Positions 1,069 through 1,698 of a stretch of DNA of 5,942 nt are shown in pieces (position 1 is the first letter of the stretch; every line of letters begins with the position of its first letter). Source of the DNA: a virus (lineage: Duplodnaviria; Heunggongvirae; Uroviricota; Caudoviricetes); IMG/VR virus record IMGVR_UViG_2667527698_000005; one strand, written 5' to 3'. The translations under genes and the position numbers were made by a program. The notes beneath the pieces are model-generated. The model saw only the letters and a program-made list of their open reading frames with translations, ran no database searches and was not told where the DNA came from.

Positions 1069-1698
1069 TCAGCCCCGGCTGGATCCAGTCATCAGGCTCT
1101 TTCTTAAAGGGGGAGTATTGAAATCACGAAGAAGAGCCTCCCGCACCGCAGCATCCATGTCTGCACCACTGGCAAGTGCTTCAATCTCTGCCGCCACCTG
1201 CAAATACCCCATGCAACGGCCAATGCGTTTCATAACTCTGGTGTTTTCGTCTTTCAGGCATCTGATAGCGAGATTAATAATTTTCAGGCAGTGATGATGC
1301 GATGCCCGGACAGGTTTTCCGTTCTCATAAACGACGAACTCACCCTCTTCACAGGAAACCCTGAAAGGCCGATGGGGTTCCTGGTCTTTATCCGGTGCAG
1401 ACGCAATAAAATCACTTTTATGCTCTTCCTCTCCGGCACTGTTAACCGTAATGACGTACTCAGGCCGCAGGTAAGCCGCCTCTTTTTCTGACAATGCGGC
1501 CGGTAAAAACTTTTCCTGCAAAAACTTCATAAAAGTCTCGTGAGCGACTTTGTGGCAGTAATCGTAAATCGCCGCATAATGCTCATCGCGGCGTTTGTTT
1601 TCATCTTCAGAACTCACCAACGCCGACAATTTTTTATTAAGCTCAGTGATTTCATTTTCCAGGTGATTGAATCGCTGATTCATTTCTTCATGCTTCAT
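1069..1698 (-). CDS. Hypothetical 209-aa soluble protein inserted between holin and endolysin; function unknown
   Basis: Uninterrupted 209-codon ORF. ATG at 1698-1696 lies 3 nt after the holin stop (TAA 1704-1702), with GGGGAGAG (complement of 1705-1712) as Shine-Dalgarno inside the holin 3' end. No hydrophobic segment. N-terminal ~35 residues look coiled-coil (NQRFNHLENEITELNKKLSAL). Scattered Cys/His (YCH, SHHHC, IRC, RC). No motif I can assign. Confidence 0.7.
   Translation of the reverse strand: MKHEEMNQRFNHLENEITELNKKLSALVSSEDENKRRDEHYAAIYDYCHKVAHETFMKFLQEKFLPAALSEKEAAYLRPEYVITVNSAGEEEHKSDFIASAPDKDQEPHRPFRVSCEEGEFVVYENGKPVRASHHHCLKIINLAIRCLKDENTRVMKRIGRCMGYLQVAAEIEALASGADMDAAVREALLRDFNTPPLRKSLMTGSSRG

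Follow-up and report, generated by a model that had tools for sequence, protein, structure and literature searches.

Location and product of the ORF

The window is a stretch of 5,942 nucleotides (nt) of viral DNA (Caudoviricetes; IMG/VR record IMGVR_UViG_2667527698_000005) that carries a lysis cassette on its minus strand. Between the genes of an S21-type pinholin and an R21-like endolysin lies an open reading frame (ORF) of 209 codons. This ORF is the subject of the present analysis and is called the target ORF; the interval between the holin and endolysin genes is referred to as the slot.

1069..1698, minus strand: target ORF, 209 amino acids (aa), ATG to TGA (ORF list, PHROG match and homologues)
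1705..1712, minus strand: Shine-Dalgarno-like GGGGAGAG of the target gene, in the final holin codons

The location agrees with the first-pass annotation of the window, which had placed the ATG 3 nt past the holin stop codon (minus-strand junction CGGGGAGAG TAA ATA ATG) and the Shine-Dalgarno sequence inside the holin coding sequence. The GGAG core of the latter is found at 1707-1710 within the holin gene, 8 nt 5' of the target ATG, a position that suits translational coupling. Consensus scans of the coding strand at 1004-1701, which are weak evidence, detected neither a sigma-70-like promoter nor an intrinsic terminator, and an Rfam scan returned nothing relevant inside the slot. The exact protein is encoded in Escherichia coli CFSAN029787 (WP_001300760.1), where it is annotated as 'hypothetical protein'.

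The product had been described as soluble with an N-terminal coiled coil and scattered Cys and His residues, and this description holds. The grand average of hydropathy (GRAVY) is -0.63, with 5 Cys and 10 His among the residues. In the AlphaFold model, residues 3-27 and 31-63 are helical. No transmembrane segment, signal-anchor or lipobox is found by hydropathy, the highest 19-residue Kyte-Doolittle window being 0.76. Searches against Pfam, NCBIfam and PADLOC gave only sub-threshold coiled-coil noise for the target protein, and none of the lysis PHROGs or Pfam lysis families matches it.

Family identity and modular architecture

The earlier view that the protein matches nothing that can be named is not upheld. 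PHROG 1085 (function unknown) matches the target with E=1.2e-73 over residues 1-209, corresponding to profile positions 117-288 of 296. The head of the profile (positions 1-116) and its last 8 positions are not covered by the target protein. The part of RefSeq 'YdfR family' proteins that lies outside DUF1327 matches as well. By sequence search the target has 132 homologues, which belong to E. coli or Shigella without exception. Those of 268-333 aa carry PF07041 (DUF1327, 'YdfR family') at the N-terminus, followed by the entire target sequence. In one of them, P0004 (333 aa; 82% identity over 94% of the query), PF07041 spans residues 1-100 with a score of 119.6 bits, and these residues have no counterpart in the target ORF. 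PF07041 is not found in the target protein even at E<=1 (gathering score 25 bits).

The modules of the family are arranged in the order DUF1327 head, conserved ITYKGKLPGRI linker, coiled coil, variable acidic stretch and C-terminal domain (C-domain) of ~110 residues. The target ORF consists of the last three. Its own start, MKHEEMNQR..., is common to many stand-alone relatives, including a 213-aa protein of Shiga toxin (Stx) 2a phages. The gene also occupies the YdfR position, directly 3' of an S21-type holin and 5' of an endolysin. In identity and architecture, the target is almost certainly a variant of the long-YdfR / PHROG 1085 family that lacks DUF1327 (headless) and the conserved end of the C-domain (tail-less). 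The first-pass annotation had suggested a longer or fused variant of YdfR; this is correct for the relatives of 268-333 aa, in which DUF1327 is fused to this sequence, but not for the window copy, which is without DUF1327. The gene itself is already catalogued. New here are the recognition of the modular relationship and of the conserved linkage to lysis cassettes.

The closest relatives are the long YdfR proteins, such as P0004 and gp05 of the Stx2-converting phage 86 (YP_794052.1, 268 aa), a DUF1327 fusion in the same genomic position that is named 'YdfR family protein' in RefSeq. Like the target gene, their genes start 3-4 nt after an S21-type holin gene and precede an endolysin gene. They share the coiled coil, the acidic linker and the C-domain with the target (58-82% identity), as well as the GRCMGYLQVAAEIE motif. 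They differ at both ends: the ~100-residue DUF1327 domain with the ITYKGKLPGRI linker is absent from the start of the target, and the intact ...PPFKK.P..W..PGL.YLK.RI tail was lost in the target by frameshift. The YdfR protein of the Qin prophage (E. coli K-12, P76160, 103 aa, DUF1327/PF07041) is encoded in the same slot and represents the head domain of the composite family. It has no sequence overlap with the target, since it is the very part that the target lacks.

Stand-alone proteins of Stx2a phages (such as BCI98956.1 of Stx2_12E129_yecE, 213 aa; 63% identity over 96% of the query) have the same headless architecture, with an MxHEEMNQR... start directly after the holin. Unlike the target, they and related 185-aa forms retain an intact tail; the 185-aa forms are without the acidic linker. 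Many of these stand-alone and 185-aa forms are followed by a reverse-strand ORF of ~104 aa, which is absent in the window.

HMMER, run exhaustively on 1.84 billion representative proteins, yielded 40 matches, all of the same family, and no fusion to a domain of known function. The distant matches are prophage proteins of Salmonella enterica (P0125-P0131, P0136, P0159 and others; 190-330 aa), all labelled 'hypothetical protein'. They share the C-domain including the tail with 31-48% identity and usually possess a DUF1327-like head, which scores below the Pfam threshold, and a helical middle part. As with the target, their genes belong to the late operon beside the lysis genes. They differ in lying 5' of the holin, directly or one small ORF away, and not in the holin-endolysin slot; some adjoin a holin of the PF16080 family. 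Two further profile searches added only proteins of Salmonella, E. coli and Shigella labelled hypothetical, and in species-representative genomes no locus of the Salmonella type was confirmed. In the searches made, the family is confined to prophages of Escherichia, Shigella and Salmonella.

Variation in the head and C-terminal modules is also seen elsewhere in the family. DUF1327 genes downstream of the holin in IMG/VR loci (L008, L021, L033, L016 and L015) end variously at 103, 104, 114, 116, 174, 183 and 243 aa, some with unrelated C-terminal extensions. A longer ancestral gene seems to have been truncated repeatedly and to have exchanged modules. A second C-terminal module (…FIAHSFGGFHE…FFLKVER; P0118, P0154) can stand in for the C-domain after the same coiled coil. 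In IMG/VR locus L165 the holin reads through into the DUF1327 gene, forming a single 341-aa ORF (MYQMEKITTG...), as if the holin stop codon had been lost or the frame had shifted in the 3-4 nt junction.

Conservation and structure of the domains

The three modules of the target differ in conservation. The ratios of nonsynonymous to synonymous substitution rates (dN/dS) given here are medians of a codon-level comparison of 49 distinct gene sequences; confidence of AlphaFold models is given as predicted local distance difference test (pLDDT).

1510..1698, minus strand: N-terminal helical hairpin or coiled coil, residues 1-63 (AlphaFold helices; lower GC content, 0.40; median dN/dS 0.46)
1369..1509, minus strand: acidic linker, residues 64-110, variable and predicted disordered (pLDDT <50; alignment gaps; median dN/dS 1.07)
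1114..1368, minus strand: conserved C-terminal domain as far as the frameshift, residues 111-195 (median dN/dS 0.27)

The C-domain is under purifying selection and the linker, which is missing from the 185-aa relatives, evolves freely. Invariant or nearly so are a Phe in the first strand, a His, the stretch GR.M(G/A).LQ.AAE and the tail P.K....W..PG..YL; in the C-domain motif, GR(C/S/A)MG(Y/L)LQ.AAE is invariant. The target keeps the core of the domain (F..V, H, GR.MG.LQ.AAE), with F112, H136, G160, R161, L166, Q167, A169 and E171 all in place.

With a shallow alignment the window protein is modelled by AlphaFold at pLDDT 50. The C-domain of P0004 reaches pLDDT 76-90 once Salmonella sequences join the alignment. 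It is modelled as a three-strand beta-meander followed by four helices, and the coiled-coil module of P0004 comprises residues 112-179. Structure and profile searches detected no fold relatives of the C-domain. Two database matches were rejected. A weak match to YqeY (E=0.058) did not recur in other members of the family. The only result of the profile search of PDB sequences, 8tch_A ('pathogenicity island protein', 580 aa; E=0.085), is limited to a 24-residue motif: its residues 411-434 align with KR.GR.MG.LQVAAEI at window residues ~150-173 (nt ~1180-1250). It is treated as a chance match, and no paper on this PDB entry was found.

The low model confidence of the window protein taken alone is what might be expected of a chance ORF or a mis-annotation from which no protein is made. 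This explanation is given next to no credence. More than 130 homologues with conserved domain boundaries, a good start context, codon-level purifying selection in the C-domain and the confident C-domain model obtained with diverse relatives all argue against it. Judged by its homologues and the dN/dS of its C-domain, the target ORF is a real protein-coding gene and not a chance reading frame.

A frameshift replaces the conserved tail

The C-domain of the window copy is interrupted shortly before its end. The deletion was located by DNA alignment with the genes of P0004 and P0002 and with the closed genome of CFSAN029787.

1109..1113, minus strand: run of five C (G5 on the plus strand), C6 in intact relatives
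1046..1108, minus strand: orphaned 3' end of the ancestral ORF; the shifted frame still reads FKKEPDDWIQPGLTYLKRRI*

One C is missing from the C6 run, which shifts the frame, and the closed genome shares this deletion. After the deletion the annotated frame reads LRKSLMTGSSRG* and stops at 1069. The annotated 3' end is corrected accordingly: the stop at 1069 arises from the 1-nt deletion, and the ancestral frame runs to a TAA at 1046-1048. From the deletion to the ancestral stop the DNA does not differ from the intact gene of P0004 at any position, so the frameshift is recent. A sequencing error is ruled out by the C5 run in the closed E. coli genome and by the occurrence of the exact 209-aa protein on at least 1000 contigs, mostly of Shigella flexneri.

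Relatives end in ...FNTPPFKKEPDDWIQPGLTYLKRRI, the window protein in ...FNTPPLRKSLMTGSSRG. The last ~20 residues are replaced, and the conserved tail PPFK..P..W..PG..YLK.R is absent, with PPLRKSLMTGSSRG in its place. The residues W, P, G, Y and L of the W..PG..YL pattern, conserved from E. coli to Salmonella, are lost. Of 92 loci examined, only two show an altered tail, namely the window and its near-identical counterpart in CFSAN029787 (L003). Alternative frameshifted tails are present in other relatives (P0042, P0074).

The window allele is thus considered impaired with moderate confidence. The opposite explanation is that the truncated allele is fully functional, the last 20 residues being dispensable, or that the C run serves as a slippage switch that brings them back in some transcripts or genomes. 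It would fit the wide distribution of the allele, which also resides in an E. coli prophage that keeps head, terminase and intact Rz genes. The shift falls in a homopolymer, the DNA beyond it is still intact and relatives carry independent frameshifted tails. On the other hand, the W, PG and YL of the tail are conserved down to 31-37% identity, the altered tail is restricted to the window and L003 among the loci examined, five or six C are short for efficient slippage, and abundance in clonal Shigella is no evidence of selection. A functional allele is therefore rather unlikely.

Gene decay and the accumulation of pseudogenes are well-known traits of the clonal Shigella lineage. Decayed relatives of the target gene include an annotated frameshifted pseudogene, a YdfR stub with an unannotated C-terminal remnant and a copy split by IS1203. 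Among 5426 complete E. coli genomes, 787 keep at least the last 165 nt of the C-domain (identity >=80%). The first-pass annotation had held that a pseudogene in relatives would speak against its reading of the ORF. This is borne out in part: the window copy has the 3' frameshift and many chromosomal relatives are annotated as pseudogenes or are cut by insertion sequences (IS), but most of the IMG/VR prophage copies sampled are intact and under purifying selection. The window copy is probably an impaired remnant in a decaying prophage.

Linkage to lysis cassettes

The holin-endolysin spacing was surveyed, as had been proposed, in 80 IMG/VR loci with a holin at least 90% identical to the window holin, of which 75 were scorable. 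The gene is variably present. The slot is empty in 28 of the 75 cassettes (37%), with holin and endolysin genes overlapping by 1 nt. In 33 (44%) it holds only a short DUF1327 gene in a gap of 312-418 nt, and the remaining 14 have longer DUF1327 forms with other or truncated extensions; none of the 75 contains the C-domain. A DUF1327/YdfR gene of about half the length of the target ORF, which the first-pass annotation had described for this position in Qin-like prophages, is indeed common there and also occupies the slot of phage mEp460 (gp55).

Each of the 80 IMG/VR loci with a C-domain has the gene between an S21-type holin and an endolysin. Their holins are 72-87% identical to that of the window, and the 3-4 nt junction with the holin is also seen in L001 and L170. 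A DUF1327 head is present in 54 of these loci, and 26 are headless. The linkage extends to the Salmonella-type loci, in which the gene is beside the lysis cassette in six out of six, directly 5' of the holin or one small ORF away. Four of the six have an antiterminator Q gene and a toxin-antitoxin pair further upstream, and two have a holin of a different family (PF16080).

Two Salmonella-type relative loci on metagenome-assembled contigs contain a DUF4406 gene (nucleoside deoxyribosyltransferase-like) that shares 4 nt with the start of the family gene (L086, 1089-1487; L168, 3639-4004). This arrangement suggests a conserved gene pair.

The target gene is placed outside the lysis machinery because its product has no membrane segment and near-identical cassettes work with an empty slot. 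It very likely rides in the late operon as an accessory gene that is optional and not needed for lysis, yet stays linked to the lysis genes. The literature search yielded no account of any gene located between S and R of these phages.

A cytoplasmic regulator of lysis timing is a different explanation for the same linkage. Produced together with the pinholin, such a protein might bind to S21 at its basic cytoplasmic C-tail, or to the N-terminal signal-anchor of a not yet exported endolysin, and thereby tune the moment of membrane depolarisation. T4 RIII, a small soluble cytoplasmic antiholin cofactor that acts at the cytoplasmic face of the holin, would be the analogue. The constant proximity to holin and endolysin, between them in E. 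coli and just 5' of the holin in Salmonella, is in line with this proposal, as are the persistence of the linkage across two different holin families, the conserved 3-4 nt coupling junction with the holin and the acidic, helical and soluble nature of the protein. However, any timing role must be optional, as the slot is empty in 37% of near-identical cassettes and contains only a DUF1327 stub in 44%. Furthermore, S21 encodes its own antiholin by its dual start, no homology or fold similarity to known lysis regulators is found, and accessory genes in general, toxin-antitoxin pairs among them, tend to settle between Q and the holin. Regulation of lysis timing is therefore unlikely, if conceivable.

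The first-pass annotation had also listed a superinfection or defence moron among the candidate roles. A gene for defence, anti-defence or superinfection exclusion would benefit the lysogen or counter host immunity. The variable, mosaic slot would accommodate such a gene, the GC content of the target gene is slightly below that of its neighbours, and relatives have accessory cargo nearby (a Tad2-like gene after Rz; RelE/ParE, HicAB and KilA-N genes). Against this, PADLOC-DB v2 contains no defence profile that matches the target protein at E<=1 and the family is without an enzymatic or known effector domain. The promoter and terminator expected of an autonomously expressed moron were not detected by the consensus scans; lacking both and placed 3 nt behind the holin, the gene should be silent in the lysogen. 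Late expression also fits anti-defence poorly. The proposal thus finds no support and is very unlikely.

Proposed role and possible connection to RNase E

Because it has no promoter of its own, the target gene would be transcribed with the late operon; translation is presumably coupled to that of the pinholin. The product is predicted to be a non-essential, oligomeric cytoplasmic late protein. It may act in the same pathway as the DUF1327 domain, since the C-terminal module is covalently fused to that head in about two thirds of the sampled relatives and stands alone in the rest; domain fusion is the ground for this proposal. Taken as a whole, an accessory PHROG 1085 gene, expressed late and by coupling, impaired in this window and with a role in the DUF1327 pathway, is the best explanation, to which we give slightly less than an even chance.

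The DUF1327 domain would provide a link to RNA metabolism. Residues 1-72 of Qin YdfR are reported to bind the N-terminal catalytic half of RNase E (residues 1-597) in two-hybrid and pull-down experiments, and RNA to co-purify with Qin YdfR (PMC13232886). This RNase E interaction screen is the sole functional paper on YdfR that was found in the literature. By extension, the target product could be a late cytoplasmic factor that is not essential and has a connection to RNase E or RNA, which is possible but doubtful. Small soluble modulators of RNase E are known from other phages, namely phiKZ Dip, T7 gp0.7 and T4 Srd. These proteins, like T4 RIII, are functional analogies only; no sequence or fold similarity to the target was detected.

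A more far-reaching proposal is that the C-domain represents a previously unrecognised class of lysis-cassette-linked regulators in lambdoid phages of Escherichia and Salmonella. Via the coiled coil it would be tethered to, or cooperate with, the RNase E-binding head and would couple control of late mRNA or RNase E to pinholin expression, hence to lysis timing or burst size. Forms without DUF1327 would be free-standing effectors. We consider this improbable.

Several points weigh against the favoured account of an impaired late gene in the DUF1327 pathway. Late expression and coupling are read from the sequence. The RNase E data concern the DUF1327 domain, which is missing in the target. Structure and profile searches gave no functional hint for the protein. 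That the gene keeps its place next to the holin in two genera is just as compatible with a lysis-related role. With regard to impairment, the frequency of the allele, mostly in clonal Shigella flexneri, is uninformative on function, and the tail might be dispensable, given the other frameshifted tails of P0042 and P0074.

If the family is functional, it provides a late-expressed factor that travels with pinholin / SAR-endolysin cassettes (SAR, signal-anchor-release) in prophages of E. coli, Shigella and Salmonella, including Shiga-toxin phages. Of the complete E. coli genomes, about one in seven has the gene at least in part. In Shiga-toxin phages, release of the toxin depends on expression of the late operon and on lysis. 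If confirmed, an effect of the factor on the stability of late mRNA or on the timing of lysis would therefore bear on toxin output. The fusion to the YdfR domain and the reported RNase E binding make this a concrete hypothesis. In the window itself, the gene is a catalogued, non-essential and frameshifted one in a lysis cassette already broken by IS600.

Neighbouring genes in the window

The remaining parts of the lysis cassette flank the target ORF on both sides.

1702..1917, minus strand: S21-type class II pinholin, 71 aa, MKSM dual start (PF04971, E=5.5e-35; PHROG holin families)
470..1003, minus strand: R21-like endolysin (phage lysozyme), 177 aa, with Ala/Gly-rich SAR-type N-terminus (PF00959, E=5.4e-24)
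69..473, minus strand: Rz i-spanin gene, 3' end lost; ends ...GIRDG*, where relatives go on ...GIRDGIIRDQTALRTLQEYIRTQCL
59..253, minus strand: Rz1 o-spanin lipoprotein gene, nested in Rz, C-terminus changed by the same breakpoint (PF06085)
1..72, strand not given: end of IS600 (IS3 family), 98.7% identical to IS600 copies annotated on plasmids of Shigella flexneri

Alignment to related prophages is lost at about position 72. Through the IS600 insertion, Rz has lost its final ~20 codons and Rz1 ends differently. With both spanin genes cut, the lysis cassette of this prophage is broken and decaying. Taken with the frequency of the exact target protein in S. flexneri, this points to a host resembling Shigella flexneri.

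The endolysin gene starts 65 nt past the target stop and 42 nt past the ancestral stop. In Stx phages and some other relatives, the additional opposite-strand ORF of ~104 aa is located between the YdfR-family gene and the endolysin gene (L001, 3654-3968; L002, 3493-3807; L172, 749-1060). The window has only the 65-nt AT-rich spacer (GC 0.34) at this place.

A run of N at 2211-2519 corresponds exactly to a cluster of four tRNA genes in the near-identical prophage of E. coli CFSAN029787. The cluster lies between antiterminator Q and the holin and encodes Gly-TCC, Thr-TGT, Arg-TCT and a tRNA with CAT anticodon annotated as Ile. It appears to be masked in the window sequence.

Related prophages carry accessory cargo after Rz. 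This includes a Tad2-like gene (PF11195) in L170 (5092-5613), and a RelE/ParE-ParD pair together with a KilA-N gene in L003 (4328-4862 and 3632-4129).

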